Assembly (NCBI GenBank): GCA_965203555.1
Contig: CBDBCY010000004.1
Span: 160,001 to 224,000, forward strand
Direction of reading: 5' to 3'
DNA: 64,000 nt
DNA from: Acidimicrobiia bacterium
Lineage (GTDB): Bacteria > Actinomycetota > Acidimicrobiia > Spongiisociales > ZC4RG35
The position numbers and the translations under genes were made by a program. The stretch's first letter is position 1, and every line of letters starts with the position of its first letter. Under the pieces are notes generated by a model. It saw only the letters and a program-made list of their open reading frames with translations, made no database searches and was not told where the DNA came from. Positions 33,597 to 61,362 of this stretch are shown in pieces.

Positions 33597-35237
<1,641 letters not shown>

Positions 35238-38380: not shown

Positions 38381-39605
38381 AGAAATGGGGGTGTTTGGTT
38401 GTGGGTAAGGTGAGGTTTGAGCGGGTGAAGCCGCATTTGAATGTGGGTACTATGGGTCATATTGATCATGGGAAGACTACGTTGACTGCTGCGATTACTA
38501 GGGTGTTGTCTGAGCGGGTTGGTGGGGTGAATGTGGTGACTGGGTTTGATGATATTGATCGTGCTCCTGAGGAGCGTGAGCGGGGTATTACGATTCAGAT
38601 TGCGCATGTTGAGTATGAGACTGTTTTGCGTCATTATGCGCATGTGGATATGCCGGGGCATGCGGATTATATTAAGAATATGATTACGGGGGCGGCTCAG
38701 GTGGATGGGGCGGTGTTGGTGGTGTCGGCGGTTGATGGTCCGATGCCGCAGACTCGTGAGCATGTGTTGTTGGCGCGGCAGGTGGGTGTGCCGCGGATTG
38801 TGGTGTTTTTGAATAAGTGTGATTTGGTGGATGATGGTGAGTTGTTGGATTTGGTGGAGTTGGAGGTTCGGGATTTGTTGACGGAGTATGAGTTTCCGGG
38901 TGATGATGTTCCGGTGGTGAGGGGTTCGGCGTTGTTGGCGTTGGAGGGTGATGTGGTGGCTGGTGATGGGGTTATGGAGTTGATGGATGCGGTTGATGGG
39001 TATGTTGATGTGCCGGTTCGGGATGTGGATCGTCCGTTTTTGATGCCGATTGAGGATGTGTTTTCGATTACTGGTCGGGGTACGGTGGTGACTGGTCGGG
39101 TTGAGCAGGGTGTGTTGCGGGTTGGTGAGGCGGTTGAGGTGGTTGGTTTGCGTGATACGCGTGGGTCGGTGGCTACTGGTGTGGAGATGTTTAGGAAGTT
39201 GTTGGATGAGGGTCGGGCTGGTGATAATGTGGGGGTGTTGTTGCGGGGGGTGGGGAAGTCGGAGGTGGAGCGTGGTCAGGTGTTGGCTGCTCCTGGGTCG
39301 ATTTTGCCGCATGTGGGTTTTGAGGCGCAGGTGTATGTGTTGACGAAGGAGGAGGGGGGGAGGCATAATCCGTTTTTTTCGGGTTATCGTCCGCAGTTTT
39401 ATTTTCGGACTACGGATGTGACGGGTTCGGTGTTGTTGCCTGTTGGGGTGCAGATGGTGATGCCGGGTGATAATGTGGAGTTGTCGGTGGAGTTGATTGC
39501 TCCGATTGCGATGTCGGTGGGGTTGGATTTCGCGATTCGTGAGGGTGGTCGGACTGTGGGGGCGGGTCGGGTCACCAAGATCACCAAATAACCCCCCAAA
39601 CCCAA
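38381..39605 (+). repeat. Direct repeat copy B (tuf with short flanks), matches 2243-3465
   Basis: Offset 36,138 bp; the only difference I could see is a C-run of 6 vs 4 after the stop codon. Confidence 0.97.
38401..39591 (+). CDS. tuf: Elongation factor Tu, copy 2
   Basis: Protein identical to copy 1; tRNA-tuf-rpmG-secE context. Confidence 0.98.
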
Positions 39606-45440: not shown

Positions 45441-47993
45441 TCAAGCTCCGAGGTAGGAGGCCAGTTTCGCGGTTTCTCGCTCTCTGAGCAGTATGTAGGC
45501 GCTGAGTCGTTCCAGGGCTTGGGCGGTGGCCTTTTCGGCGTGGGGCAGATCGGCCTCGGAGAGGTACGCCTTGACTTTCCCGGCGATCTGTGGGTGGGAC
45601 AGGTGATGGACGCTGTCGACCAGGTACCGGACCACCATCGGGGGGAGAGAGGTTACGATGTCCTCCCAGTTCTGCCGGGCCTTCTCCCAGGCATAGGCGC
45701 CGGTCTTCTTGCGTCGGAATAGCCACCCCACCACCCAGGCCGAATCCTGGTTGCGGATGGTTCCATCCACCACTGCCCGCACGGTGGCGTCAATACCGGG
45801 TTCGTTCTCGACAAAGGTCAGCGAGCGTAGGAATCGCAGCTTTTCCTGGGGGGCATCGGTGGCTTCGTACAGGGAGAACAGTCTCTGGTAGGTGGCGTGG
45901 TCGCTATGGGCAGCCACCGTATAAAGACTTGCCTGTGCTACCTCGGGGTCGACCGTCCGGGGATCGGACAACCACTGTTCGAACCTGTCCACGGAGCCGG
46001 CGACGTAGTCGGGATGGCAGGCCAGCCGTCCGGCGGCGCCCAGCATCAGGCCCCGAAGCTGGCGGGTCAGGTCACTGTCATTCGGATGGGGATCCCATCC
46101 CAGCCGTTCGAGAGTCGGCCCGATCAATTCCATCACCAGGCTCGAAAACCTTCCCTGATGATCTTTCCCTACCAGATGGTGATGCATGGTCCCCAAACCG
46201 CCCAAGACCGCCGACCAGATGACGAATTCCTTCTCGGTCCGATAGGTGGCGGCGACGTCCAGGTAGGCGGTGGCCGGCAACTCTCCGCTTTCCACCAGCG
46301 CCCAGGTGTCGTCGATCAAACAGAAGCGCTCCAGGTCGTCTAGGCCGTCCAGGTGTGTCAATATCCCGTTACGAAGTCGCTCCGGATAGAGCACCCGATA
46401 GAAACCGTGTCCACCGGCGTTGGCGGTGATCCAGGAAGGCGGGGAGTCGAGCGCCACATGGGTGCGCCGCTCGGAGACCAGGTGGTTAGTGTGAAAGGCT
46501 CCTTGAGTCGTCTCTCCCCGCAGTTGGATGGGTATCCGCCAACTGGTCGGATCATCGGAGGGAATTCTGAGATGACGTTTCTGGGTGATCGTCACGCCTT
46601 CCGAACCCTCCTTCACTTCCAGCAGGGGATAGCCGCCCTGCAGGATCCAGGTGTCCATGATCTCTCCCACGGGCTCTCCCGAGGCCTGGTTGAGACTCAC
46701 CCACAGATCGGCGGTGTCGGTGTTGCCGTAGGCATGGGCCCGCAGATAATTCCCCACTCCATTCCGGAAGGTATCCTCTCCCAGGTACTGCTCGATCATC
46801 CGCAGGATCGCCGAACCCTTCCCGTAGGTGAGGGCGTCGAACATCTCGTTGGCTTCGGACGGCGAGTTGACCTCGAACTCCACCGGCCGGGTGCTGGCCA
46901 GCGAATCCACCCCGTAAGCCCAGGGCCGCTCCAGGCCGGCGAAGGCGAGCCATCTCTTCCACTCGGGTCGCATGGCGTCGGCGGCCTTCATCTCCATGAA
47001 GGTGGCGAATGCCTCGTTCAGCCAGATTCCGTTCCACCATTTCATGGTGACCAGGTCGCCGAACCACATGTGGGCCAACTCGTGGGCGATCACGTCGAGG
47101 ATGCGGATCATCTCGTCGGTGGTGGCAGTGGCGGGGTCGGTGAGCAGGGCGGTCTCGCGATAGGTGATACAGCCCAGGTTCTCCATGGCGCCGAAGGCGA
47201 AGTCGGGTACGGCGAGATGGTCGATCTTGTCTCCGGGATAGGGGATGCCGTAGTAGGACCTGAAGTACCGAAGACAGAACACTGCGCATTCCAGGGCGTA
47301 GTCGGTCAGATGGAGCTTGCCTCTCGGCGCCACCACTCTCACGGCCACGCCGTCCACGTCAACCGGGTCGGTGGCTTCGAAGTCCCCGATCACGAACGCC
47401 ACCAGATAGGTGGACATCGGGATGGTGTCGGCATAGGTGATCGCAACAGTGTCCGCTCCGGCTTCGATCCGACTGATCTCGGGGCTGTTGGAGACTGCCA
47501 TGAGATGGTTGGGCGTCACCAGCGTTATGCCGAAAACCGCCTTGAAGTCGGGCTCATCCCAGCACGGAAATGCCCGCCGGGCATCGGTGGCCTCGAACTG
47601 GGTGGTGGCGATCACCTGCTGTTCGCCGTCCACATCTGTAAAGGTGGAGCGATAGAACCCGTGGAGTTGGTCGTTGAGGATGCCGGTGAACACCACCGTC
47701 AGAACAGCTGCTCCGACCGGGGCGCTTGCCTCCAACCTGATGGTGGCCCGCTCCAGTTCGGCCTGGTAGTCGATGGTTCCCTCCAGGCGGGTTCCGTCAG
47801 CAACTGTCAAGGTGGCCCGGCCTATCCGCAGCTCGACCGCGTTGAGGACGATCTCGGCTGTCGGCTCGTTCACATTCACTCGGATCTCGACTCGGCCCTG
47901 GAAGGTGAATTCCTCGAAATCAGGTTCGATCCGCAGGTCGTACCGGCTGGGAATTACCGACCGAGGCAGTCGGTGCGGATCGGCTTTGCTCAT
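45441..47993 (-). CDS. pepN: M1 family aminopeptidase (PepN / puromycin-sensitive type)
   Basis: ATTQFE, ARRAFPCWDEP, GAMEN, HELAHMWFG, WLNEAFA, YGKG. Confidence 0.93.
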   Translation of the reverse strand: MSKADPHRLPRSVIPSRYDLRIEPDFEEFTFQGRVEIRVNVNEPTAEIVLNAVELRIGRATLTVADGTRLEGTIDYQAELERATIRLEASAPVGAAVLTVVFTGILNDQLHGFYRSTFTDVDGEQQVIATTQFEATDARRAFPCWDEPDFKAVFGITLVTPNHLMAVSNSPEISRIEAGADTVAITYADTIPMSTYLVAFVIGDFEATDPVDVDGVAVRVVAPRGKLHLTDYALECAVFCLRYFRSYYGIPYPGDKIDHLAVPDFAFGAMENLGCITYRETALLTDPATATTDEMIRILDVIAHELAHMWFGDLVTMKWWNGIWLNEAFATFMEMKAADAMRPEWKRWLAFAGLERPWAYGVDSLASTRPVEFEVNSPSEANEMFDALTYGKGSAILRMIEQYLGEDTFRNGVGNYLRAHAYGNTDTADLWVSLNQASGEPVGEIMDTWILQGGYPLLEVKEGSEGVTITQKRHLRIPSDDPTSWRIPIQLRGETTQGAFHTNHLVSERRTHVALDSPPSWITANAGGHGFYRVLYPERLRNGILTHLDGLDDLERFCLIDDTWALVESGELPATAYLDVAATYRTEKEFVIWSAVLGGLGTMHHHLVGKDHQGRFSSLVMELIGPTLERLGWDPHPNDSDLTRQLRGLMLGAAGRLACHPDYVAGSVDRFEQWLSDPRTVDPEVAQASLYTVAAHSDHATYQRLFSLYEATDAPQEKLRFLRSLTFVENEPGIDATVRAVVDGTIRNQDSAWVVGWLFRRKKTGAYAWEKARQNWEDIVTSLPPMVVRYLVDSVHHLSHPQIAGKVKAYLSEADLPHAEKATAQALERLSAYILLRERETAKLASYLGA

Positions 47994-49432
47994 GGTGAAC
48001 GGGGATCCGGATTGGGGGAGGACCAGTCGGTGTGAAAAGCCTCGGTGACGGGCCGATCGGTCCTGCGGTAGGTGTGGGCACCAAAGTAGTCACGCTGGGC
48101 GGCCACCAGGTTGGCGGGGAGCCTTTTCGACCGGAATCCGTCATAGAAGGCCAGGGCGGCCGAGTAACCCGGAGCGGGAATACCCGCCAAGGCCGCCTTG
48201 GCCACCATCAGTCGCCATCCCTCGGAGGCTCCGGCAACAGCCTGGGTGAAGTGGTCATGCATGAGGAGGTTGAGAGGTGGCGGATCGCAGCGGTAAGCGG
48301 CGATCACCTCTTCCAGCAACCGGGCGCGGATGATGCATCCGTTCCTCCACACCTGGGCGATGCGGGCCAGATCGAAGTGCCATTCGAACTGGTGTGAAGC
48401 GGCGGCGAGCACCATGAAACCCTGGGCGTAGGAGACGATTTTGGAGGCGTACAGGGCGTCATGTATCCAGCCTGCCAACCGGGTCCGGTCTCCGCTCAGC
48501 AACGGTTCTCCCGGGGCGCCTCCGGGGCCTCCCAGCACTTGCGATGCTGCCGTCCGGTCCGATTTGAGAGCCGAAACGCCGCGGGCCATCACCGCCTCGG
48601 CCACCAGCGTCATGGGCTGCCCCAGGTCCAGCGCCACTTTGACGGTGTCGCGGCCGGTGCCCTTCTGGGAAGCCAGGTCCAGTATCTTTTCCAAGAGCGG
48701 CTGCCCGTCGTCGTCCCGGCGGGCCAGAATCTCGGTGGTGATATCCACCAGGTAGGAATCCAAGGGACCGCTTCTCCATTCCTCGAACAGTTCGCTCATC
48801 TCCCGGTGGCTCATCCCGGTGGACTTGAGGAGGTGGTAGGCCTCCGCCAGCAGTTGCATGTCTCCGTATTCGATGCCGTTGTGGACCATCTTCACGAAAT
48901 GCCCGGCACCCTCCGGTCCGAGAAGGTCGCAGCATGCAGTCCCGTCTTCCAATTTGGCGGAGATGGCGGTGAGCGGAACTTCCAACAGGCGCCATGCCTC
49001 CGGACTGCCGCCCACCATTATCGACGGACCGTGCCTGGCGCCCTCCTCGCCTCCTGATACTCCCACTCCCAGATAGTGAATACCGCGGGACTCCGTTTGG
49101 GTCTGCCGGCGGGCGGTGTCCCGGAAGAACGAGTTGCCGAGGTCGGCGATGACGTCGCCGGCAGACAACAGAGGCGAGAGACGCTCTATGAAAGAGTCCA
49201 CCGGCCATCCCGCCTTGACCAGCACAAGGATCCTGCGGGGGCGGTCCAGCATGGCAACCAGATCTTCCAGGCTGTCGGCGCCCTGCACGGGTTTGCCGGA
49301 AGCTGATTCGGCCAGGAAGCGATGGGTGGTGGCTGTCGTCCGGTTGTGTACCGCCACTCTGAAGCCGTTGTCCACCAGGTTGAGGACCAGATTCTGTCCC
49401 ATCACCGCCAGACCGATCAGTCCGATGTCCAT
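47990..49432 (-). CDS. gnd: 6-phosphogluconate dehydrogenase, decarboxylating
   Basis: IGLIGLAVMG, VSGGEEGA, FVKMVHNGIEYGDMQ, QKGTG, AQRDYFGAH. Confidence 0.97.
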   Translation of the reverse strand: MDIGLIGLAVMGQNLVLNLVDNGFRVAVHNRTTATTHRFLAESASGKPVQGADSLEDLVAMLDRPRRILVLVKAGWPVDSFIERLSPLLSAGDVIADLGNSFFRDTARRQTQTESRGIHYLGVGVSGGEEGARHGPSIMVGGSPEAWRLLEVPLTAISAKLEDGTACCDLLGPEGAGHFVKMVHNGIEYGDMQLLAEAYHLLKSTGMSHREMSELFEEWRSGPLDSYLVDITTEILARRDDDGQPLLEKILDLASQKGTGRDTVKVALDLGQPMTLVAEAVMARGVSALKSDRTAASQVLGGPGGAPGEPLLSGDRTRLAGWIHDALYASKIVSYAQGFMVLAAASHQFEWHFDLARIAQVWRNGCIIRARLLEEVIAAYRCDPPPLNLLMHDHFTQAVAGASEGWRLMVAKAALAGIPAPGYSAALAFYDGFRSKRLPANLVAAQRDYFGAHTYRRTDRPVTEAFHTDWSSPNPDPRSP

Positions 49433-49545
49433 GGTTTTCTTTGCAGCCACCCAGGGCAAGGGTAATCAGTCCGACCGCCGGGAAGGCGCAAGAAACCCGG
49501 GAAGGGGGACCCGGGTGAGTCTGCGACCACGGTATCTTTCCGGGG

Positions 49546-51267
49546 ATGCGCTGGTCCGAACTGTTCATACCCACGCTGCGGAACGATCCCGCCCATGCCG
49601 AGGCGGCCAGCCACCGCCTCCTCCTGAGGGGAGGATTCATACGGCAACTGGCCGCCGGCCACTATTCCATGTTGCCTCTGGGGCAGCGGGTCCGCGCCAA
49701 GGTGGACCGGATCATCCGGGAGGAGATGGACGCCATCGGGGGCCAGCAGGTGCACCTGCCCGCTCTCCATCCCGCCGAGGTGTGGCGCCAGTCGGGACGG
49801 TGGGAGGCCATGGGGGAGGAGATGTTCCGCCTCGAGGACCGGAAGGGAGTGGATCAATGTCTGGGCATGACCCATGAGGAGGTGATCGCCCTGCTGGCGG
49901 GGGAGGTGTTCTCCTATCGGGATCTTCCCCAGGTCTGGTACCAGATCCAGACCAAGTTCCGCGACGAGCCCCGGCCCAAGTCGGGGGTGCTGCGGGTGCG
50001 GGAGTTCACCATGAAGGACTCCTATTCACTGGACGTGGACCAGGCGGGGCTGGACGTCGCCTTCGATCACCACCATCAGGCCTACACCGCCATCTTCCGC
50101 CGTTGCGGGCTCGAAGCTCTCGACGTGGCGGCCTCCTCGGGAGCGATGGGCGGGTCCGAGTCGGTCGAGTTCATGGTTGCCAGCCCGGCCGGGGAGGATT
50201 GGATCGTCACCTGCGACGGCTGTGACTACCGGGCAAACCTGGAGAGGGCGGTGTCTGTGACACCGGAGATCGACGACGGTCCCACCTGCGGGGAGACCCA
50301 GCCTCTGGCCACTCCCGGAATCCGCACCATCCGCGCTCTTGCCGACGCTCACCCCGATCAAGCCGGGGAGGACCGCCAGATCAAGACCCTCGTCTACATG
50401 GTGGACGGCCAGCTCACATTGGTGCTTCTCCGGGGAGATCACGAACTGATCGAGCAGAAGCTGGTGGACACCCTCGGGGTCGCCAATCTGCGCCCTGCCC
50501 ACCGGGACGAGATCCATGCCTCCCTGGGCGCCGATCCGGGGAGCCTGGGGGCCGTGGGCGTGAAGCACCTGCCGATAATCGCCGATCGCGCCCTGGAGGG
50601 CCGGCGCAACCTGGTGACCGGCGCTAACCGGGATGACTGGCATCTCGTCTCGGTGGACGTGACACGGGACATCGATGTGGGGCGGTGGGCCGACCTGCGG
50701 GGGATTTCCGCAGGCGAGAAGTGCCCGGAGTGCGGCGGGACGTTCGACGTGTGGCGGGGGATCGAGGTGGGGCACATCTTCAAGTTGGGCGACCGATACT
50801 CCAAGGCGATGGGCGCCATCATCCAGAACGAGCAGGGCGAGTCCACCCCCATCGTGATGGGCTCCTACGGGATAGGGGTGGAGAGGACCATGGCGGCCGT
50901 TGTGGAGTTCTCCCACGACCGGCGAGGGATCATCTGGCCGGCCTCGGTCGCTCCCTATCACGTCGTGATCACGGTGCTGCGCGCCGACGACCCCGACACT
51001 CTGGCGGTGGGAGAACGCATCTACGAGGAACTGACCGGAGCGGGGATTGAGGCCCTTCTGGACGACCGCCCTGAACGGCCGGGTGTAAAGTTCGCCGACG
51101 CCGAACTGATCGGCATCCCCTACCGGATCACCGTCGGCCCGCGAGGACTGGCCCAGGGCCTCGTGGAACTCACCACCCGCGCCGATCTGAATACCGTCGA
51201 CGCCCCCGCGGCCGAGGTCACCGGTAGCGTCGCCGACCTGGTTAGGGCCGCCCTGTCGTCCGCCTAG
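49546..51267 (+). CDS. proS: Proline--tRNA ligase (bacterial type with editing domain)
   Basis: THEE, KFRDEPRP, REFTMKDSYS, IEVGHIFKLG, MGSYGIG, GVKFADAELIG. Confidence 0.97.
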   Translation: MRWSELFIPTLRNDPAHAEAASHRLLLRGGFIRQLAAGHYSMLPLGQRVRAKVDRIIREEMDAIGGQQVHLPALHPAEVWRQSGRWEAMGEEMFRLEDRKGVDQCLGMTHEEVIALLAGEVFSYRDLPQVWYQIQTKFRDEPRPKSGVLRVREFTMKDSYSLDVDQAGLDVAFDHHHQAYTAIFRRCGLEALDVAASSGAMGGSESVEFMVASPAGEDWIVTCDGCDYRANLERAVSVTPEIDDGPTCGETQPLATPGIRTIRALADAHPDQAGEDRQIKTLVYMVDGQLTLVLLRGDHELIEQKLVDTLGVANLRPAHRDEIHASLGADPGSLGAVGVKHLPIIADRALEGRRNLVTGANRDDWHLVSVDVTRDIDVGRWADLRGISAGEKCPECGGTFDVWRGIEVGHIFKLGDRYSKAMGAIIQNEQGESTPIVMGSYGIGVERTMAAVVEFSHDRRGIIWPASVAPYHVVITVLRADDPDTLAVGERIYEELTGAGIEALLDDRPERPGVKFADAELIGIPYRITVGPRGLAQGLVELTTRADLNTVDAPAAEVTGSVADLVRAALSSA

Positions 51268-51898
51268 ATACCTCCCCCCGGAGTCATGTCCACACAGTGT
51301 GATGGAGCTCCCCCAACGCGCTCTCCCCCTGTCGCACCGGAAGGTTACATCGGCCCGGTCACCCTGCTCTCCAAGACGGTGGGACAGAACGGCCAAGCAG
51401 TCCTTGGCTGCGGCTCCCGCAACTCGACTTTGGGTTCTAAGAACCCACCCTTCTAGATTGCTCCCCCTCGGTACCGACCCTGAATGTGCTGATGAACCCT
51501 GCCGTGCTTGTACTTCGTAGCGCATGGGGAGTTGCCACCGGTAGGGCCGATCCTACAGCGGATTGCCATAGGCCATCACGATGCGAGGGCTCGCCGTCCT
51601 AGTTGTGCAGGATGAGGAGATCCGGTAACAAGGATTAGTTGTTTGATGCGATTCGGCTGGGAAGTCGCTTTCAGTGGCACGTCCCGGCGGCTCGGTAATC
51701 GGAGCATGCGAAGAGGTCATACCTGAACCTGTGGATCGCCTGGCCAGGGACTTGGGGGTGGCGTTGTTGAGGATGGCTGGTTTCCTGTTTGTTCGTTGTA
51801 GGGGAGTTTGTACCGCTTCTGACCGGGAGATCACAAGAAATCAGGACAGGACGGGTTGAGATCATGGTCATATCACATGCCGGGGTGTTAACCTGACT

Positions 51899-51917
51899 GA
51901 GAATGATAATCATTCTA
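51899..51917 (+). promoter_or_regulatory. Fur-family (Fur/Zur) operator
   Basis: GAGAATGAT-A-ATCATTCTA 9-1-9 inverted repeat; 15/19 match to the classical GATAATGATAATCATTATC box; 32 nt before the ATG. Confidence 0.8.
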
Positions 51918-51949
51918 AGTCTCCGCAATCACCTAGAAAGGGAGAAGGG

Positions 51950-52729
51950 ATGAAACGCCTGGCAGCGATAATCCTGCTGACCGTCCTAGCGGCACCAGCC
52001 ATCCCGGCAGGAGCCCAAGGCGCCCCGCCAACCAGCGACGGACCGGAGGGCATCAATCTCGTTTGGAAATGCATGCCCAACTGGTGGTGGGAAGCCCACC
52101 AAAAAGGCCGAGACCTCGACCCGAGCGGGGAGACCTGCGATTGGGTCTACGACATGACCCACGACGCCATGCACGATCACGAAGACGATGACCACGATGA
52201 CGGTCACGACGAGGGACCCCCCGGCATGACCGACCCCTACCAAGGAGGAGTCCACGAGGGAACCAGAATCGTTTGGACTTGCATGCCAGGCCTCGACGGA
52301 ACCGGCCAGGTCTGCGCGTGGATTTATGACACCGGTCACGGCCATAGCCACGGGGAAGAAGAGCATCACGACGACCACGACGAGCCGCACCGCCCGCAGG
52401 CGTTGGCGGCGTTCTCGGCATCCTGTCAGACCGTGGGAACCGATATCCAGTGTCAACTGTCGATAACACCGACCGAGGGAGACCTGCAGCCCATCCGGTA
52501 CCGGGTTGCGATCGTTGACGGGCAGACCAAAGCCAAGGTAGCCATATTGCACCTGTCGCCCACCGACCTGAACCCGACGGTAACCCTGTCGGATGCTGAC
52601 AACAGCAACCTGATTCTGAAGGCGCGAGCCGTGGGCGATTGCAAGCGAGAAACCAAGCGCGACGCCGGAGCCGAAACCTGTAGCCGGTTCAAGGGCCCAG
52701 TCAGCAAGGCAACCGTCCGGGTAGGGTAA
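51950..52729 (+). CDS. Secreted His/Asp-rich protein with two Cys/Trp repeats, unknown function
   Basis: SD GGGAG; signal peptide MKRLAAIILLTVLAAPAIPAGA; repeated VWxCMP...CxW[VI]YD module, each followed by a His-rich tract. Confidence 0.8.
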   Translation: MKRLAAIILLTVLAAPAIPAGAQGAPPTSDGPEGINLVWKCMPNWWWEAHQKGRDLDPSGETCDWVYDMTHDAMHDHEDDDHDDGHDEGPPGMTDPYQGGVHEGTRIVWTCMPGLDGTGQVCAWIYDTGHGHSHGEEEHHDDHDEPHRPQALAAFSASCQTVGTDIQCQLSITPTEGDLQPIRYRVAIVDGQTKAKVAILHLSPTDLNPTVTLSDADNSNLILKARAVGDCKRETKRDAGAETCSRFKGPVSKATVRVG

Positions 52730-52964
52730 TCATCCCCTAGACTTACCTGCAGGCTCCAACCTTCGGTTCTCAGTCTAGGAGCTAGACGAGGTCGAGGGCG
52801 TCCCACTGGCGGTCGGCCAGGCCTTCTTCCATCGCTGGGGTGTGCAAACTGAGCCACTACCCGGCCGAGCAGGGCAGGTATGATATTAGTGTGATTCTTA
52901 GGCTGATGTTATGACTTGTTGTGATGTGTTGCTGGCGCCGCATTTGGGTTCGTTTTGAGGTGAT

Positions 52965-55365
52965 GTGTTGGAGTTGTCTGAGGGCTTGGTGACGGAGGGT
53001 GAAGCCGGTTTGCGGGAACGGCTTTATAGGTTGAGCCGGGCGAGTCTGCGTATTAATGAGAGTCTGGATTTTGATTCGGTGCTTCAGGGTGCTTTGGATT
53101 CGGCTTGTTCGTTGACTGGCGCCCGTTATGGGGTGATGGCTATGTTGGATGGCGGGGGGCGGGTGGGGGACTTTTTGTCGTCGGGATTGAGCGGTGAGCA
53201 GGCCGAACAGCTCTGGCAGACCCCCCAGAGGTGGGAAATATTCGAGCGTTTGGGCCGCGTGTCCGTACCTTTGCGTGTTCCTGACCTGGTGGGCCATGTG
53301 AGGTCTTTGGGGTTTGACGGGTTCCGTCTGCCCTTGGCGGGCGGGTCGGTGTGGCCGTTTTTGGCGTCGCCGATGTTCCATGGTACCGAGCGGGTAGGTA
53401 ATGTCTTTTTGGCCGGGCGGGTGGACGGGGCCGAGTTCAGCGGGGAGGACGAGCAGACTCTGGTGATGTTCGCTTCTCAGGCGGCGTTGGTGATTGCTAA
53501 CGCCCGGCGGCATCTTGAAGAGCGGCGGGCCCGGGCCGCCTTGGAGACGCTGATCGATACTTCTCCGGTGGGTGTGGTGGTGTTCGATGCCGTGTCCGGA
53601 GCGCCTAAGTCTTTCAATCGGGAAGCGCGGAGGATCGCGGACAGCCTGGCGGACTCCGATCAGTCTCCTGAGATGCTCTTGGACGTGATCACCTGCAGGC
53701 GGGCCGATGGGCGGGAGGTTTCCTTGCGGGAGTTTCCGTTGGCCGAGTTGCTGAGCGCGGGGGAGACGCTGCGGGCCGAGGAGATTGTCTTGGCGGTTCC
53801 CGACGGGCGCTGTGTCACGGTGCTGTTAAACGCGACGCCGATCTTCTCCGATGCGGGCGAGGTGGAGTCGGCGGTGGTGACGCTCCAGGACATGGCCGAC
53901 GTGGAGGAGTTGGAGCGCCTACGGGCCGAGTTTTTGGCCATGGTCAGCCACGAGTTGCGGGCGCCCTTGACCTCCATCAAGGGTTCCACTGCCACGGTGC
54001 TGGATTCGCCCGTGGACCTGGACCCGGCCGTGGTCCGCCAGTTTTTCCGTATCATTTCCGAGCAGGCCGATCACATGCACGGCCTGGTGTCCGATCTCCT
54101 GGACGTAGCTCGGATCGAGACGGGCACGCTGGCGGTCGGTCCCGAACCGGCGGAGGTGGCCATGCTGGTGGAGCGGGCGAGGCGTGCTTTCACGGGTGGT
54201 GGGGGCCGGAACGACCTGGCCATCGACATCGAGCCCGGTCTTCCGCTGGTGATGGCGGACCGGCGGCGAATCCTCCAGGTGCTGGTCAACCTGCTGACCA
54301 ACGCGGCCCGCCACTCCCCGCGGCCGTCGGTCATCACGATAACCGCCACCCGCGACGGGACACATGTGGCCGTCTCGGTAGTCGACGAGGGGCGGGGCAT
54401 CCCGGCCGAGAGCCTGCCCGGTTTGTTCCGGAAGTTCTCCGCGGCGAAGTCCGAGGAACCGGGCGGGGACACCGGGCTGGGCCTGGCGATCTGCAGAGGG
54501 ATAGTAGAGGCCCACGGGGGACGCATCTGGGCCGAGAGCGACGGCCCGGACCTCGGCGCCCGTTTCACCTTCACCCTGCCCACAGTGGAACCAACCAGCG
54601 GCGCAACAGCCGGTGCTCGCCCGCCGTCATCGAGGCGCTTGTCCCGCGGGCAGCAAGAGACGGGAGAAGGGGTGCGGGTACTGGCGGTGGACGACGACCC
54701 CAGAGACCTCCGGTACGTCCAGGACACCCTCATCCAGTCGGGATACGCTCCCACGGTAACCGGGGACCCCGAGGAAGCGCTCCGTCTCATGGAAGAGGAC
54801 CGGCCCCGGCTGGTGCTGCTGGACCTCATGCTCCCCGGGACAGACGGCATCAAGCTGATGGGAGAGATCCTGAACACCGCGGACGTGCCGGTCATCTTCC
54901 TCTCCGCCTACGGCAGGGACGACCTCATCGCCGAAGCTCTCAACAAAGGCGCCTCCGACTACGTCCTCAAGCCCTTCTCGCCAACAGAGCTGACAGCAAG
55001 AATCGGAGCGGCCCTCCGCCGCAGCGCCCGTCCCCGAGCCCCTGGAGCCATACCAACTGGGCGACCTGACCATCAACTACCCCGAACGCAGAGTGACCCT
55101 AGCCGACCGGCCCGTGCACCTCCTCCCAATGGAATACCGAATGCTCACCGCGCTCTCGACCAGCGCCGGACGGGTACTCACCTACAAACAACTGCTAAAC
55201 CGAGTGTGGGAGGACAAAGAAAGCCGCGACCTGCGACCCATGCGCACCATTGTCCGCAAACTCCGACAAAAACTAAACGACGACGCCCGCAACCCCACCT
55301 ACATCTTCACCGAACCCCGCGTCGGCTACCGAATGCCAAAAGGAGAGAAAAGAAAAACGCACTGA
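52965..55365 (+). CDS. Soluble hybrid GAF-PAS-histidine kinase-receiver-winged-helix protein; +1 frameshift at ~55028
   Basis: H-box VSHELRAPLT, N-box NLLTNA, G-boxes DEGRGI and GTGLGL, receiver DDD...LLDLMLP...KPF. The KdpE/OmpR-type DNA-binding domain (EYRML...VLTYKQLL..VW...PTYIFTEPRVGY) continues in another frame. Confidence 0.85.
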
Positions 55366-55635
55366 CCCAGTCAGATAACCCTGCGATGAGGTTCTGCTCA
55401 TATTTTGCGGACCGTGGCGGCGAACTTGTCCGCGACTGGGTGCGGGCACTATCCAACCACTCGTCTTCTGTGATCTCTCCACGCTTAGCAGCGCCGGCGA
55501 GAATCCGCCTCGTTGGCCCTGCCGCCGTTCACTCCTGTCTACATGCCTACCAGCATGCAAAGATGGTGTGACACCCCAACCCCACACCCCAACCTGTGAA
55601 AAAGACGCTAGCCGGCCAAGCCTGCGGCAGACATG

Positions 55636-56436
55636 CTAAGCCGAGGAGTTCCGGCCCAGGCGCCTCTCGCCGGCGTAGACCACCATCTCCTCGCCCCGTA
55701 CGAACCCGGCCAGGGTGAGTCCCACCTCTTCGGCGAGATCGGCCGCCAGGGTGGAGGCGGCGGAAATCCCGGCCACCACGGGGATGCCGGCCACGGCCGC
55801 CTTCTGAGTTATCTCGAAAGAGATCCTGCCGGAGACCATCAGGATCAACTCGCCCAACGGCCATCTCCTCCGAGCCATGGCGCCCACCGCCTTGTCCACC
55901 GCGTTGTGGCGACCCACGTCCTCGGCGATGGCCAGCAACTCCCCGGCGGCATTGAACAAGCCGGCCGCGTGGGACCCTCCGGTGGCGGCGAAGGACTCTT
56001 GGGCGCTGCGCAAGCGATCGGGAAGGACGGTGATCGTCCTTCTGGTCAGTTCCGGTCCCGACGGGAGAGGGCGGGAACTGATCAGGACCGCATCGATGGA
56101 GGCTTTTCCGCACACCCCGCAGGATGAAGAGGTGTAAGTATTCCGCCGGAATTGCTCAGGATCGATGCTCACCCCCGGCGCCAACTCCAACTCGTACCGG
56201 TCGCCCGACCCGATGGACCGGACACCGGCCACCTCCGCGGGACGGTCGACTATCCCCTCGGTGATGGCAAACCCCAGCGCCAGATCCTCCTCCTGGCCGG
56301 GCGTCCTCATCATCACCGCGATGGGTACTCCCGCCAACCGGATCTCCATGGGGGATTCCTCCACCAACCGGTCCCTTACCCGATGGGTGAGGAGGGGGCC
56401 GACTTTCAACACCTGGCGTCCACTGAGGCGCGACAT
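55636..56436 (-). CDS. fdhD: Formate dehydrogenase accessory sulfurtransferase
   Basis: MRTPG, GF..TEG, SSCGVCG, TGGSHAA, EDVGRHNAVDK, SGRISFE. Confidence 0.94.
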   Translation of the reverse strand: MSRLSGRQVLKVGPLLTHRVRDRLVEESPMEIRLAGVPIAVMMRTPGQEEDLALGFAITEGIVDRPAEVAGVRSIGSGDRYELELAPGVSIDPEQFRRNTYTSSSCGVCGKASIDAVLISSRPLPSGPELTRRTITVLPDRLRSAQESFAATGGSHAAGLFNAAGELLAIAEDVGRHNAVDKAVGAMARRRWPLGELILMVSGRISFEITQKAAVAGIPVVAGISAASTLAADLAEEVGLTLAGFVRGEEMVVYAGERRLGRNSSA

Positions 56437-56504
56437 GTAAGTCAACATTAGGAGGTCGGCCAAAAGGTTTCTTTATTTGTGCCTGTCATGCGACAATTAG
56501 AAAG

Positions 56505-57588
56505 ATGCGAGTAGACAATTTCGGCGCCGGCCCGTGCACCCTCCCCCTGTCCATTCTCGAAGAGGCCCGAGCGGAGTTCTTGGACTTTGCGGGCAGCGGG
56601 ATGTCCATCCTGGAACTCAGCCACCGTTCCGCCTTCTATGAGACCGTCCACGAGGAGGCGCTGTCCCTGGCGAGGGAGGTGTCGGGCGCGCCGGATGACT
56701 TCGAAGTGCTGGTGATCGCGGGCGGGGCCACCATGCAATTCGCCATGATCCCGGCCAATTTGCTGTCGGAGCGCGGCAGCAGGGGCGGCTATTTGAGGAC
56801 CGGCACCTGGGGTCGGTTGGCCCTGGCGGATGCCGGGCGATGGGGCGACGCCTACTGTGCCTGGGACGGGGAGCCCCACGGGTACCGGAGGATGCCCGAC
56901 GTTGACGAAATCCACGTCCAGCCAGATACCCGGTTCTTGCATGTGACCTCCAACGAGACCATAGGCGGGATAAGGATGCCGGAGATACCCGCCGTCGGCG
57001 TGCCTTTGGTGTGTGACGTCTCCTCGGACTTCATGGCCCGGCCCATCCCATGGGAACTCTGCGACCTGGTGTACGGGGGGGTGCAGAAGAACCTTGCCCC
57101 GGCCGGGATGGGGTTGGTGTTCGTACGGCACCGCGTCCTGGAGAGTCTGACCGGTTCGCTACCCCGGTTTTTCGACTATCGCTGGTATGCCGACAAGGGT
57201 TCGACGGGCAACACCCCGCCCGTTCTACCGATTTACATGATGGGCAAGATGCTCAAACTATTGCGCGATCTGGGTGGAGTGAAGGGGTTGGAAGAGCGCA
57301 CCGCCCAAAAGGCTCGCCTGATCTACGATGTCATCGACCGAAGCGACGGCTACTACCACAGCCCGGTGGATCCGAGGCACCGTTCTCACACCAACGTGGT
57401 GTTCCGACTGCCCACACCCGAGGCAGAGTTTGCAGTTTGTCGGCCAAGCCGCCGCGGCGGGCCTGGTGGGACTGAAGGGTCATAGATCGGTGGGTGGCTG
57501 TCGGGCCAGCCTGTACGCCGGTTTGGAGCTGCGCAGCGCCGCCAGGCTGGCTTCCTTCATGAGCGAATTTCGGGCAGACAACTCCTGA
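56505..57588 (+). CDS. serC: Phosphoserine aminotransferase; +1 frameshift at ~57430
   Basis: NFGAGP, ELSHRS, NETI.G, QKN, NTPP; the C-terminal LKGHRSVGGCRASLY lies in a shifted frame (ORF 57328-57588). Confidence 0.9.
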
Positions 57589-57667
57589 ACCGAGGGAAAA
57601 CTTCACCGAAGACCTAGGTGCAAGACCGGGGCTAGACTTAGACCCGTCTAGGAGAGAGCGCGTCCGT

Positions 57668-58183
57668 ATGAGCAAAACCGACACGATGCCCAAGCTCACT
57701 GTGGCCGAAAGGCTGCGAGATCTACTTGGCCCGTACCTTGAGGCCGAGTGTTTGGAGCTGGACGACCTCCAATTGCTGGGAGGTGGAGGAGCTCGGGTAT
57801 TGCGGGTGGTGGTGGACGGCGAGGGCGGGGTTACCCTCGACCGTCTGGCCGAAACTTCCCGTCGGCTGTCGAGGTTGTTGGACGCAGACGCCCAGATGCA
57901 GGGTCCCTACCGGCTGGAAGTGACGTCCCCCGGTTTGGAACGGAGTCTCAGAACGGCCCGTCATTTCCAAAAGTCGGTTGATCGGGAGGTGGTGATGAAG
58001 GTCCGCACCGATGCGGGGGTGCGCAGCCTCCGGGGACAGTTGGCCTCCGCCGACCGTCACGGGTGTGAAATCTCGGCGGAGGGTGATCTCCAATGGTTTC
58101 CCTACGGTGACGTCCTTTCGGCCCGCACCGTCTTCCGATGGCAGGCCGCGCCCAAGCCCGGCAAAGGCAAGGTGAAGTCATGA
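57668..58183 (+). CDS. rimP: Ribosome maturation factor RimP
   Basis: LRVVVD, YRLEVTSPGLER; position upstream of nusA. Confidence 0.93.
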   Translation: MSKTDTMPKLTVAERLRDLLGPYLEAECLELDDLQLLGGGGARVLRVVVDGEGGVTLDRLAETSRRLSRLLDADAQMQGPYRLEVTSPGLERSLRTARHFQKSVDREVVMKVRTDAGVRSLRGQLASADRHGCEISAEGDLQWFPYGDVLSARTVFRWQAAPKPGKGKVKS

Positions 58184-59283
58184 AGATCGATTATCAGGTC
58201 ATGGAGGCGCTGGAGCTATTGGAGAGAGAACGCGGGGTGCCGGTCGAGACGATCCTGGATGCCCTGGCCAACGCTCTGGTGTCCGCCTACAAGCGCACTT
58301 CGGGCAGAGCCGAGGAGGCGCGGGTAACCATCGATCCCGATGCCGGGGACATACGAGTCTTCGGTCAGATCCTGGATGAGGAAGGCGCCGTGGTCAGAGA
58401 GTGGGAGGACAAGTCCCAGGAGTTCGGCCGCATAGCCGCCCAAACCGCCAAGCAGGTGATAGCTCAACGGCTGCGGATCGCCAAGCGTGAACAGATCTAT
58501 GCCGCCTACGCCGGAAGGGAGGGCGATCTGGTCACCGGTATCGTGCAACAGGTCGACGGGCGGTATGTCATCTTCGATCTGGGTAACGCCGAGGCGCTCA
58601 TGCCGGCCTCCGAGCGCATTCCCCATCAGATGCTGGACCGGGGCAATCGGGCCAAGGCCCTCATACTGGAAGTCAAGAACGAGCCCAAGGGACCCCAGAT
58701 CATTCTCAGTCGTTCCCATCCTGATCTGGTGCGCCGACTGCTGGAATTGGAAGTGCCCGAACTGGTGGAAGGCGTGGTGGAGATAGTGGCGATCGCCCGC
58801 GAGCCCGGTCACCGGACCAAGATCGCGGTGGTCTCTCACGATCCCAACGTCGATCCCCGCGGCGCCTGCGTGGGCGCCAGAGGTTCCCGCGTTCAGCAGG
58901 TAGTCAAAGAACTGCGGAACGAGAAGGTGGATGTCGTCCAGTACCAGGAGGACGTGGCTGCTTTCATCGCCGACGCCTTGGGGCCGGCCCGGATTCGCGA
59001 GGTGAGGATCAACGAAGAGGAAAAGAGCGCCGAGGTTATCGTTTCCGAGCACCAGCTTTCCCTGGCGATCGGCAAGGAAGGCCAGAATGCCCGCCTGGCC
59101 GCCCGCCTGACCGGATACCGGATCGACATTCGTTCTGATGAACCGCCTCCCTCTCCGGGAGCGGGCGCCGGGGGACGCCCACCGATGTCCCGACCGGTTT
59201 CGGGAGGTCGACCGAGGACCGCTCCCAGGCCTGACGGTCGTTCCATGCCCAGGAGTCCAGGTTCGCAAGCTGCCTCTTCCTGA
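58180..59283 (+). CDS. nusA: Transcription termination factor NusA
   Basis: FGRIAAQTAKQVI, AREPGHRTKIAV, ACVG, LSLAIGKEGQNARLAA. Confidence 0.97.
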   Translation: MKIDYQVMEALELLERERGVPVETILDALANALVSAYKRTSGRAEEARVTIDPDAGDIRVFGQILDEEGAVVREWEDKSQEFGRIAAQTAKQVIAQRLRIAKREQIYAAYAGREGDLVTGIVQQVDGRYVIFDLGNAEALMPASERIPHQMLDRGNRAKALILEVKNEPKGPQIILSRSHPDLVRRLLELEVPELVEGVVEIVAIAREPGHRTKIAVVSHDPNVDPRGACVGARGSRVQQVVKELRNEKVDVVQYQEDVAAFIADALGPARIREVRINEEEKSAEVIVSEHQLSLAIGKEGQNARLAARLTGYRIDIRSDEPPPSPGAGAGGRPPMSRPVSGGRPRTAPRPDGRSMPRSPGSQAASS

Positions 59284-59307
59284 CCGGGGTTTGGGTCTCG
59301 GTGCGCT

Positions 59308-61362
59308 ATGACTAGGGTCAGGATTTATCAGATTGCCCGTGATCTGGGTTTGACCACCCAGGAGGTGCTGAACCAGGCCACCGCCATTGGTTTGACGGTG
59401 AAGGCCGCTTCCTCCACCATTTCCAACGAGGAAGCCGAGTTGGTGCGCTTCGCCTTGGTGGGGGAGCAGAAGGAGGAAAGGAAGCCTAAGCCCGAGCCGG
59501 TCCGGAAGCCGCCTTCCGCCAAGCCTGTAGCCCACCGAGAGCCGGAACCGGCGCCGCCGGTTGTCGAGGAGGATCCGCCGTCGCAGTCTGAAGAGGATGA
59601 CCGGGTGGTTGAGGTTCCCGAGACGGCGTTGGTTCTCGAGTACGCCGAAGCGATCGGGGTTCCGGTAGGCGAGGTGGTGGCAAAGTTGATCGGCCTGGGA
59701 GAGATGGTGGGCGCCGGTCAGCGTATGCCACGGGAGACGATGGAGGATGTGGGGGAGAGTTTCGGAGTGCTGGTGGAGGTGATCAGGTCCGAGCCCGAGC
59801 GAGGCCCGGTGGTGAGGTTGCGGGATGTCCCCGACGACAATCCGAAGGACCTGGTGGAACGGCCTCCGATCGTCACCGTGATGGGCCACGTCGATCATGG
59901 GAAGACCACCCTGCTCGATGCTCTGCGCCGCACCGATGTGGTGTCGGGTGAGGCGGGTGGAATCACCCAGCACATCGGGGCCTACCAGGCCACGGTGGCG
60001 GGGAACCGGATCACTTTCATCGACACCCCTGGTCATGAGGCGTTCACGACCCTGCGGGCAAGAGGGGCGGAAATCACCGACATAGTGGTCCTGGTGATCG
60101 CGGCGGATGATGGAGTCATGCCCCAGACGGTCGAGGCGATCAGCCACGCCCGGGCCGCGGGGGTCGACATGCTGGTGGCCATCAACAAGATCGACCGCCT
60201 CGGGGCCGATCCGGTGGCGGTCAGGGCCAAGCTCACCGAGCAGAATGTCATCACCGAGGAACTGGGGGGCGATGTGCCCAGCGTGGAGATTTCCGCCACC
60301 AGGGGCGACGGTTTGGACGATCTGTTGGAGACCCTCGACCTGATGGCGCAGATCAAGGAACTGAAAGCCTCTCCCAAGCCGCTTGCCTCGGGGGTGGTGG
60401 TGGACTCGCGACTCGACCACGGCATGGGACCGGTGGCCACCGTAATCGTCCAGCGGGGCACTCTACGGCGGGGCAGCGCCCTGGTGGCCGGGGCGGTGTC
60501 GGGGCGGGTGAGAGCCATGTTCAACCATGCGGGGAAGAGAGTCAACGCCGCAGGTCCGTCGGCGCCGGTGCTGGTAATGGGTTGGAGCGAGGCGCCCGAG
60601 GCGGGAGAGGGATTCGAGGTGGTCAAGAACGAGCGCCTGGCGAGGCGCATGGCTTCGGATCAGGCCGACCTTGATCGGGAGACTCGGATCAGGGCGGAGA
60701 TGCCCACCGCACGGGACCGTTTCGTGCAGCACCTCGAGCAGTTGCAGTCCACCGAGGGTGAACTGCGGCTGATCGTCAAAGGCGACTTGCAGGGGTCGGT
60801 GGAGACCCTCCGCGAGGCGATCGGCAAGATCAAGCGAGAGAAGGGACGGATCTCCATCGTTCACTCGGCGGTGGGGGGGATCAACCTCAACGACGTCAAT
60901 CTCAGTGACGTCACGGGGGCCGTGATCGTGGGTTTCAATGTCCGGGCGGAGAGCAAAGCGGCCCGCGAGGCTCGACAGCGCGGGATAGAGATGCGCTCTT
61001 ACTCGGTGATCTACGAGTTGTTGGACGATGTCGAGCAGATGATGGTGGGCAAGCTCGCTCCTGAACGACACGAGGAGATTCTGGGAACGGCCGAGGTTCG
61101 GGCCCTTTTCCGGGTCCCCAGAGCCATGGCGGCGGGTTGTTTCGTGAAGGAGGGCCGGATCGTGCAGGGCGCCGACGTACGCCTGTACCGCGACGATGTG
61201 GTGATCTACACGGGTACCGTGGCTTCGCTGCGCAGGTTCAAGCAGGATGTGGATGAGGTGCCCTTCGGCCTTGAATGCGGAATAGTCCTGGAGCGTTACA
61301 ACGATGTGAAGGAAGGGGACCTGATCGAGGCTTTCACGGTTAGGGAGGTCATGCCCACCTGA
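59308..61362 (+). CDS. infB: Translation initiation factor IF-2 (short N-terminal region)
   Basis: MGHVDHGKTTLLD, GGITQHIGAY, DTPGHEAF, NKID, SLRRFK, ECGI. Confidence 0.98.
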   Translation: MTRVRIYQIARDLGLTTQEVLNQATAIGLTVKAASSTISNEEAELVRFALVGEQKEERKPKPEPVRKPPSAKPVAHREPEPAPPVVEEDPPSQSEEDDRVVEVPETALVLEYAEAIGVPVGEVVAKLIGLGEMVGAGQRMPRETMEDVGESFGVLVEVIRSEPERGPVVRLRDVPDDNPKDLVERPPIVTVMGHVDHGKTTLLDALRRTDVVSGEAGGITQHIGAYQATVAGNRITFIDTPGHEAFTTLRARGAEITDIVVLVIAADDGVMPQTVEAISHARAAGVDMLVAINKIDRLGADPVAVRAKLTEQNVITEELGGDVPSVEISATRGDGLDDLLETLDLMAQIKELKASPKPLASGVVVDSRLDHGMGPVATVIVQRGTLRRGSALVAGAVSGRVRAMFNHAGKRVNAAGPSAPVLVMGWSEAPEAGEGFEVVKNERLARRMASDQADLDRETRIRAEMPTARDRFVQHLEQLQSTEGELRLIVKGDLQGSVETLREAIGKIKREKGRISIVHSAVGGINLNDVNLSDVTGAVIVGFNVRAESKAAREARQRGIEMRSYSVIYELLDDVEQMMVGKLAPERHEEILGTAEVRALFRVPRAMAAGCFVKEGRIVQGADVRLYRDDVVIYTGTVASLRRFKQDVDEVPFGLECGIVLERYNDVKEGDLIEAFTVREVMPT

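Follow-up and report, generated by a model that had tools for sequence, protein, structure and literature searches.

A GRINS-like keto skew gradient on a mobile, probably intact kinase-regulator cassette of an Acidimicrobiia bacterium

Repeats of intense nucleotide skew, called GRINS, have been defined as repeats longer than 500 bp and more than 80% identical whose mean absolute GC and TA skews exceed 0.15 (Nivina et al. 2021, PMC8256042). In the available text of that article, which presents GRINS as a widespread recoding of repeated genes, the two skews are said to correlate positively in most cases and to peak at third codon positions, stretches rich in G+T and in C+A occur less than 1 kb apart, and the repeats are described as tied to gene conversion, commonest in Actinobacteria, reported in phyla such as cyanobacteria, and frequent in transposases and actinobacterial endonucleases. 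The same text calls the mechanism unknown and names single-copy skewed regions as possible young or dying GRINS (PMC8256042). Here, we describe a sensor kinase gene, K1, in which the base composition of the coding strand shifts from keto (G and T) at the 5′ end to amino (A and C) at the 3′ end. The gene lies in a 64,000-nucleotide stretch of DNA from an Acidimicrobiia bacterium (assembly GCA_965203555.1, contig CBDBCY010000004.1, forward-strand positions 160,001 to 224,000; hereafter the window), and coordinates given without a contig are positions in this window. The gene and the two features that belong to its gradient are as follows:

52965-55365, + strand: K1, fused sensor kinase and response regulator by its Pfam domains, bearing the keto-to-amino gradient
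52870-52964, + strand: K1 leader, G/T-rich and C-poor, 5′ of the start codon (direct reading)
55571-55594, + strand: C/A run within the A/C-rich tail of a 4.4-kb insertion (direct reading)

The original prediction, made from the letters of the window, held that this kinase gene grades from a G/T-rich 5′ end to a C/A-rich 3′ end, with a C/A run behind it. Measured as the keto skew, (G+T-A-C)/n in 200-nt windows, this polarity is borne out: the skew falls from +0.46 at 52901-53100 to -0.32 at 55101-55300, with a GC skew of +0.495 and an AT skew of -0.402 at 52900-53099 and corresponding values of -0.267 and +0.400 at 55100-55299. The G/T-rich stretch begins ~87 nt 5′ of the GTG start at 52965, and the C/A run is present where it had been placed, as its single occurrence in the genome (3.42 Mb, 4 contigs, 62% G+C). 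The third-position keto skew, which the prediction had proposed plotting along the gene, takes values of +0.70, +0.35, +0.45, +0.38, +0.15, +0.07, -0.20, -0.10, -0.57 and -0.62 in ten equal bins (Spearman rho -0.40 against codon index, p = 7.5e-33), and the difference between the first and the last third, 0.92, was reached by 0 of 20,000 codon shuffles. Against single-copy genes of at least 200 aa, K1 ranks second of 1805 in this difference (z = 5.2), with its two in-genome paralogues, K3 and K2, first and sixth; the background is approximate, as the genes (2626 in all) are crude calls from a simple caller. These results confirm that the gradient of K1 is real and far from chance.

How closely does K1 resemble the published repeats? 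Its skewed unit is about 2.5 kb long (52870-55380), and its mean absolute GC and TA skews are 0.19 and 0.24 (150-nt windows, step 30); the controls lie under 0.15, at 0.10 and 0.09 for fusA, 0.11 and 0.08 for a proS-like gene, and 0.11 and 0.13 for the genome tile median. The two skews are correlated along the gene (Pearson r = 0.83, p = 1.5e-21; genome tile median 0.06). K1 shares with GRINS the intense, correlated skews that are strongest at third positions. On the other hand, it has no duplicate above 80% identity, the best in-genome match reaching 67% over about 2.3 kb, and its role is in signalling and not in polyketide synthesis; it matches the single-copy skewed regions that the GRINS authors named. 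The convergent polarity rule described below is not stated in the GRINS paper, and the words "mismatch" and "polarity" are absent from its available text (PMC8256042). Titles and abstracts of the literature on GRINS with nucleotide skews give no mechanism, and in the literature searched we found no statement of a polarity rule or of NucS as a cause of such skew. It is likely, in our view, that K1 is a mobile cassette whose gradient reflects a GRINS-type bias linked to recombination, and we class the locus as a GRINS-like skew on a kinase-regulator cassette that is mobile and probably intact.

Furthermore, the gradient of K1 is the same pattern that marks insertion sequences (ISs) in this genome. 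Gradient steepness grows with copy number, from a mean of 0.015 in single-copy genes to 0.43 in four-copy genes, and multi-copy genes, which are the steeper ones (Mann-Whitney p = 5e-21), make up 44 of the 60 steepest genes versus 121 of 1926 overall. Skew as a marker of recombining repeats, an idea put forward in the original prediction, thus holds in this genome. The repeat kinds with the gradient are IS630, IS110, ISL3, IS4/5 and IS21, names that are our reading of the Pfam domains, and a DUF222-HNH gene. By Pfam, the steep transposase genes carry DDE_3, DEDD/IS110, ISL3, DDE_Tnp_1 and rve domains, and the other steep genes are of the DUF222-HNH, restriction-modification, SNF2, Fic and nucleotidyltransferase types. 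In most repeat copies, the plus strand goes from about +0.4 in the first 200 bp to about -0.4 in the last, in either gene direction, and the skew in the flanks of graded copies is near 0. A single gradient extends over the two genes of a 2.3-kb IS21-like element. Reverse complementation leaves the pattern as it is, each strand being keto-rich at its 5′ end, just as had been said of either strand of K1.

Three binding-protein genes with internal repeats of 0.9-1.0 kb (96-100% identical) have a uniformly keto-rich coding strand. For close direct repeats, one counter-oriented case suggests that the keto-rich strand is the leading strand. This case is a repetitive Ser/Gly/Thr-rich gene of 805 aa (G000:C4:1005774-1008188, G000 being the source genome) whose 223-nt internal repeats are 100% identical and whose coding strand is amino-rich (-0.23); this gene opposes the local replication direction, as inferred from GC skew. 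Separately, a single-copy gene of 389 aa (G000:C4:1295343-1296509) has a uniform keto skew of 0.33, or 0.51 at third positions. It is an orphan without Pfam match or repeat, and a repeat-based explanation does not cover it.

The original prediction assigned K1 to a multi-copy paralogue family that exchanges sequence, and expected close paralogues with the same gradient and with mosaic tracts. The family is indeed very large: all 8000 scored candidates of a wide protein search with K1 (52965-55040) had E ≤ 1e-50, among them proteins 68-81% identical to K1, the nearest beyond a 99% twin being 81% identical. The genome search also yielded paralogues, K2 and K3, which show the same gradient. These copies, however, share only 67% DNA identity with K1 over about 2.3 kb, so that they are not close and give no indication of current exchange, and when 300-nt windows of K1 were compared with 21 family members from 11 genomes, none exceeded 0.80 identity and no mosaic tract was seen. 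Each of the three paralogues has a G/T-rich leader, and comparison of these leaders revealed no homology among them.

Across 31 related genomes, the family is patchy: a threshold of E ≤ 1e-80 gives 24 matches, which are spread over 11 genomes at 1-5 matches each; exclusion of two partial matches (L093 and L094) leaves 22 full-length members. A full gradient is found in six of these (K1, K2, K3, L083, L090 and L091) and half a gradient in three (L084, L076 and L077). The other 13 are flat, including a group conserved in four species, and the copy is flat in all four genomes with a single member. The graded members are dispersed over the protein tree of the family. We also noted a few homologues 68-69% identical to K1 from records labelled Chloroflexota/Dehalococcoidia; as these are closer to K1 than its own paralogues (about 60%), they suggest that the family may have been transferred between phyla in sponge communities.

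The direction of base change in K1 was polarised against the consensus of its three flat relatives. The first quarter has 62 amino-to-keto versus 23 keto-to-amino changes (C>T 22, C>G 26, A>G 11), and the last quarter 7 versus 40 (G>A 24, G>C 12). K3 and L083 have a similar pattern of changes, K2 shows continuing keto-to-amino gains across its 3′ three quarters, and L074, an 82% relative of K2, is decaying toward flat at both ends. Transversions are as common as transitions, which fits a keto/amino filter better than deamination alone. Together, the scattered graded members, the decay of L074 and the 13 flat members of 22 show a lineage-specific, dynamic state that is gained and lost, and not a requirement of the protein.

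Could the skew be tied to the homogenisation of repeated copies? The window contains two tuf genes that bear on this question:

2243-3465, + strand: tuf copy 1, uniformly G/T-rich (third-position keto skew 0.96)
38381-39605, + strand: tuf copy 2, with the same protein and the same skew as copy 1 (sequence comparison)

The tufA and tufB genes of Salmonella and E. coli are reportedly two copies kept nearly identical by gene conversion. As in that model, there are two copies for the same protein here, an arrangement seen across the class; in the present case, the converted block is nearly purged of third-position A and C, and this tracks homogenisation. The two copies lie about 36 kb apart, and the repeat block consists of the open reading frame (ORF) ± about 14 nt. 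Leu is encoded by TTG in 34 of 34 codons, and the 215 fourfold sites have A and C fractions of 0.00 and 0.01. The fusA gene, 12 nt 5′ of tuf, has a third-position skew of 0.01, and the ribosomal protein genes are near 0. Throughout the genus, the third-position skew is 0.95-0.99 in 12 of 12 full-length tuf loci, a set that includes the source genome and a value from an unpublished genome, G021.

In 26 two-copy genomes of the class, the skew of the one tuf copy measured is at least 0.28 in 20 and at most 0.02 in 6. The pairs were compared in 19 of these 26 genomes. Pairs that are 98.1-100% identical (13 NucS-bearing genomes) have third-position skews of 0.27-0.87, and pairs that are 84.7-92.3% identical (6 genomes) have skews of -0.20 to 0.05, so that pair identity separates the two skew classes completely (Mann-Whitney p = 7e-5, Spearman 0.76; the relatives are non-independent, and these statistics overstate the case). 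Single-copy tuf genes range from -0.22 to 0.01 in 11 of 11 genomes. Three draft genomes with one tuf match, two of them at contig ends, have skews of 0.62-0.84 and may hide a collapsed second copy. Consequently, the tuf skew goes with concerted evolution, the gene being uniformly G/T-rich only where its copies are kept identical.

With respect to its product, K1 consists of the following domains, and one position between the last two bears on whether the gene is intact:

about 53064-53495, + strand: GAF domain (Pfam)
53541-53894, + strand: PAS domain (Pfam)
53922-54125, + strand: HisKA domain (Pfam, E 7.7e-17)
54258-54584, + strand: HATPase_c domain (Pfam, E 2.6e-27)
54678-55004, + strand: receiver domain, REC (Pfam Response_reg, E 8e-25)
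55108-55335, + strand: Trans_reg_C domain (Pfam, E 4.2e-20)
55027, + strand: extra C in a C-run, splitting the frame between REC and the DNA-binding domain (run contigs and a 99% identical protein)

Pfam E-values across the kinase part range from 2.6e-27 to 7.9e-06. K1 has both the HisKA and the ATPase domain of a histidine kinase, each above the Pfam cut-offs, and the receiver followed by the Trans_reg_C winged helix of an OmpR-type regulator. Its predicted product is thus a soluble sensor kinase that carries a receiver and an OmpR-type DNA-binding domain of its own. Like hybrid two-component proteins in which a receiver and an OmpR-type output are fused, it has its catalytic and output domains in one chain; the sensor-to-DNA-binding fusion of K1 differs in belonging to a very large, patchy and mobile family.

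In the assembly, the domains from GAF to Response_reg are in frame from 52965, and Trans_reg_C is in the frame 55093-55365; the C/A-rich last codons quoted in the original prediction come from this latter frame and are out of frame with the kinase part. The receiver and Trans_reg_C are joined in one frame in K2, in K3 and in P0121, a protein of 798 aa from another public record that is 99% identical to K1 and continues without a break past this position. Contigs from four of four sequencing runs (one contig each, with depth_with equal to depth) are one letter shorter at 55027; these runs come from two studies, and two of them may be the source sample. The extra C is therefore probably an assembly error, and K1 is most likely an intact gene. 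The contig depth over K1 has peaks at conserved motifs, which reflect the many members of the family.

K1 sits in an insertion that can be delimited by comparison with the genus:

51268-55640, no strand: 4.4-kb insertion with a 259-aa ORF, K1 and a repeat fragment (comparison with 16 genus genomes)
55404-55508, + strand: 105-nt fragment of a DUF222-HNH multi-copy repeat gene (genome matches)

The neighbours, named by Pfam, are the proS-like gene on the left (to 51267) and fdhD on the right (from about 55640). In a DNA search, both flanks (matching 47000-51267 and about 55640-60000) were found in 16 of 16 genus genomes, and in most of those listed they are 15 to about 400 bp apart. The 4.4-kb insertion thus appears specific to the source genome among the 16 genus genomes compared. 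Another species of the genus, G003, has a different filling of 4.3 kb at the same site (G003:C1:625317-629650), so that the interval from the proS-like gene to fdhD resembles a hotspot for insertions. The 105-nt fragment has 25 other matches in the genome at 72-82% identity, and the complete copies of this repeat gene carry the Pfam domains DUF222 and HNH. The ORF of 259 aa (51950-52729), which is unnamed and has no Pfam match, contains His/Asp-rich 15-nt periodic repeats at 52163-52228 and shows a smaller plus-to-minus skew of its own, from about +0.3 at 51600-51800 to -0.24 at third positions in the ORF.

The K1 insertion does not qualify as an insertion sequence or transposon: no transposase gene was found in it, and its borders have no direct repeat, no target duplication and no convincing terminal repeat, the best inverted match being 22 nt at 73%. 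This weak match (52823-52844 and 55583-55604, core GGGGTGTG / CACACCCC) flanks K1, its right arm overlaps the C/A run, and it may be either fortuitous or a remnant of the eroded termini of a carrier element. The homology of K2 with its nearest relative in G003 (82% in DNA) covers the gene ± about 50 bp only, in another genomic context. K3 is bracketed by two small repeats (L071 1072-1381 and 4186-4394, in G000:C4:2900478-2905841), which look like miniature mobile elements; these repeats occur roughly 3 to 10 times in the relatives G003, G007 and G013. Taken together, K1 is most likely a horizontally mobile, intact single-gene cassette for a GAF-PAS-histidine kinase-receiver-OmpR fusion.

What might generate a skew that is convergent on both strands? 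In M. smegmatis, the yield of recombinants is >500-fold lower for oligonucleotides whose pairing with the chromosome leaves a G-G, G-T or T-T mismatch, an effect that depends on NucS, and, in the part of the source available, all other mismatches escape NucS (PMC11551767). The mismatches repaired by NucS/EndoMS, as given in the available text, lie exactly on the keto/amino axis seen here (PMC11551767, PMC11551744). Deletion of nucS in Haloferax is described as causing a severe gene-conversion defect (PMC11276520), and a preprint on M. tuberculosis, as far as its available text goes, reports a T>C excess in converted paralogous regions (PMC13061034). NucS/EndoMS is known as a system of replication-error repair, and its role in the composition of repeats is inferred here.

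We hypothesize that a cassette acts as a block of homology with foreign flanks, in which recombination with diverged homologues, whether incoming DNA or ectopic copies, would have to start inside the block. The transferred strands would be 3′-ended, with the bottom strand informing the left part and the top strand informing the right part. NucS would correct G/T, G/G and T/T mismatches against the incoming strand and pass all others; the incoming strand could install A or C, not G or T, and on it the four amino-to-keto changes would be blocked and the four keto-to-amino changes would pass. Repeated events would leave each strand G/T-rich toward its 5′ end and A/C-rich toward its 3′ end, with the skew maximal at the borders and zero in the middle of the block. 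For close direct repeats such as tuf, the incoming strand would pair with the lagging-strand template, yielding a uniformly G/T-rich leading (here coding) strand. Once exchange stops, the gradient would decay. The inside start, the 3′-ended transfer and the NucS filter would together produce the axis of the changes (including C>G and G>C), the polarity, the shape of the gradient and its sharp borders, and the proposal would also account for the link of tuf skew with homogenisation and for decay after exchange stops.

Several comparisons are consistent with a role of NucS. The source genome has NucS and no MutS_V was found in it, NucS being the only mismatch-repair system found there. In a closed, one-contig genome of the same class, G070, neither a NucS domain, nor the NucS protein of the source genome, nor MutS_V was found; three IS families examined there (8, 6 and 7 copies) are all flat, with a range of -0.20 to +0.20. 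We note that in G070, an Acidimicrobiia genome of 2.2 Mb, at least three IS families have expanded and their copies are almost identical. Similarly, in G024, where NucS was not found (85% complete), the tuf copies are 99.5% identical and their skew is 0.11-0.13. IS elements are graded in three families of G119 and in one family of G043, both of which have NucS, and four distinct IS elements of E. coli K-12 show differences of -0.20 to +0.11.

A number of observations weigh against this proposal, beside the non-independence of the tuf genomes. No recombination partner of K1 was identified, the nearest relative beyond the 99% twin being 81% identical in protein. The predicted bias is not seen in the rare variants of 16 DUF222-HNH copies, and the C-rich end of these copies is rather decaying (C>T 18 versus T>C 2). 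The wider test used rve-family loci, as the 120 best ISL3 homologues, each with 57% or more identity to the query, were too close for a broad comparison. Across the phylum, the gradient of 27 such loci, some of them in the unpublished genomes G160 and G197, averages 0.02 and is positive in 14 of 27. NucS-bearing G190 has a flat IS, NucS-bearing G205 has one graded and one flat family, and G047, which has NucS, and G051 have weak IS gradients. Conversely, 26 loci from genomes in which no NucS was found have a mean of 0.06, and some are graded: G025 with 0.51, G021 with 0.26 and 0.31 (for G021, both the loci and the NucS status come from the unpublished genome) and G036 with 0.21. These three are drafts 90-95% complete, in which nucS may be unassembled, as it may be in G024. 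GRINS-bearing phyla such as cyanobacteria are, in addition, not known to have NucS. Finally, the M. tuberculosis preprint reads its T>C excess, in the text available, as reduced NucS action during recombination (PMC13061034).

At best, then, NucS would be necessary but not sufficient, and its necessity rests mainly on one closed genome, G070; the support for the proposal is suggestive but mixed. That GRINS, and with them the rule of G/T-rich 5′ ends, arise from the keto/keto mismatch specificity of NucS acting on the heteroduplex of 3′-ended transfer is a tentative idea that we hold to be somewhat doubtful. The full statement, that K1 carries a GRINS-type cassette bias arising from 3′-ended transfer filtered by NucS and not from paralogue exchange, we regard as possible, if a little short of an even chance.

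Could damage to DNA alone produce the same picture? In recombination intermediates, deamination and abasic bypass might strip C from the exposed parts of single strands with no mismatch filter, a break inside the block leaving the top strand to its left, and the bottom strand to its right, open to deamination of cytosine (and adenine). This predicts the same polarity and the same shape of the gradient, C loss at the 5′ end and G loss at the 3′ end dominate the spectrum of K1, and deamination is also considered in the available text of the GRINS paper (PMC8256042). However, resection on sister copies would expose unique genes equally, yet the skew stops sharply at the borders of repeats, as where fusA at 0.01 adjoins tuf at 0.96 and where IS flanks are near 0. 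Moreover, tuf is skewed only where its copies are homogenised, A has been purged from it as fully as C, and G070 has many identical IS copies with no skew. We therefore consider damage alone unlikely.

Selection on the transcript or cassette would explain the skew by a C-poor 5′ part that escapes Rho and a C-rich, G-poor 3′ part that serves as a Rho loading site, with the antisense of the 5′ part also loading Rho and mobile genes thereby insulated. The untranslated leader is indeed included in the skew, and the skew is found on accessory or mobile genes (restriction-modification, SNF2, Fic and transposase). A Rho site, however, needs far less than a gradient of 2.5 kb. In addition, the flat majority of the family, including the group conserved in four species, works without the gradient, as do the IS elements of G070 and E. 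coli; the gradient of the IS21 element covers two genes as one unit; and tuf is skewed where fusA of the same operon is not. Selection of this kind is thus very unlikely.

Transcription-associated mutation of the non-template strand would require sense transcription to dominate in the 5′ half of the gene and antisense transcription in the 3′ half. The non-template strand gains C>T changes, and the leader lies within the skew, as this explanation would have it. On the other hand, the ribosomal protein genes, fusA and a 545-aa gene (33600-35237), probably groEL, have third-position skews of -0.32 to 0.28, mostly near 0, and the skew of tuf ends at the borders of the repeat and not at those of the transcript, which leaves this explanation marginally less credible still. 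The lack of skew in these same genes also led us to reject a general expression-linked bias. Weakest of all is the cause suggested originally, ongoing gene conversion among K1, K2 and K3 inside the genome, to which we give hardly any credence: the three do share the gradient, and the nearest relatives of the first 600 nt of K1 are other keto-rich copies, but these are 0.67 identical and reflect convergence in composition, and the overall identity of 67%, the lack of any window above 0.80, the non-homologous leaders and the 13 flat members of 22 do not support an origin in exchange among in-genome paralogues. The recombination partner behind the K1 gradient would thus not be a paralogue in the same genome.

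GC-biased gene conversion and the strand-asymmetry gradients of replication and of mitochondria act like selection and can recode genes. The bias proposed here would be like them in being non-adaptive and linked to heteroduplex or to time spent single-stranded, and it would differ in its keto/amino axis, in its scale of one gene or element, and in its convergence on both strands. Three things here extend the literature: a simple polarity rule, by which the skew converges, ends where the block ends and peaks at its borders; a class-wide comparative link between tuf skew and concerted evolution; and the NucS hypothesis, which proposes a concrete molecular cause on the basis of the published specificity of NucS.

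K1 itself is more ordinary: it is mobile and probably intact, and it belongs to a very large family of fused sensor-regulators of bacteria associated with sponges. If the proposal is true, a single genome could be scanned for mobile or recombining blocks without a second copy, and neither odd codon usage nor shifts in amino acids should be taken, in such genes, as a sign of selection or of foreign origin. In Actinobacteria that have NucS, and perhaps in Archaea, base composition would record which blocks recombine, from which side and how often, and the drive would recode even proteins as conserved as EF-Tu.

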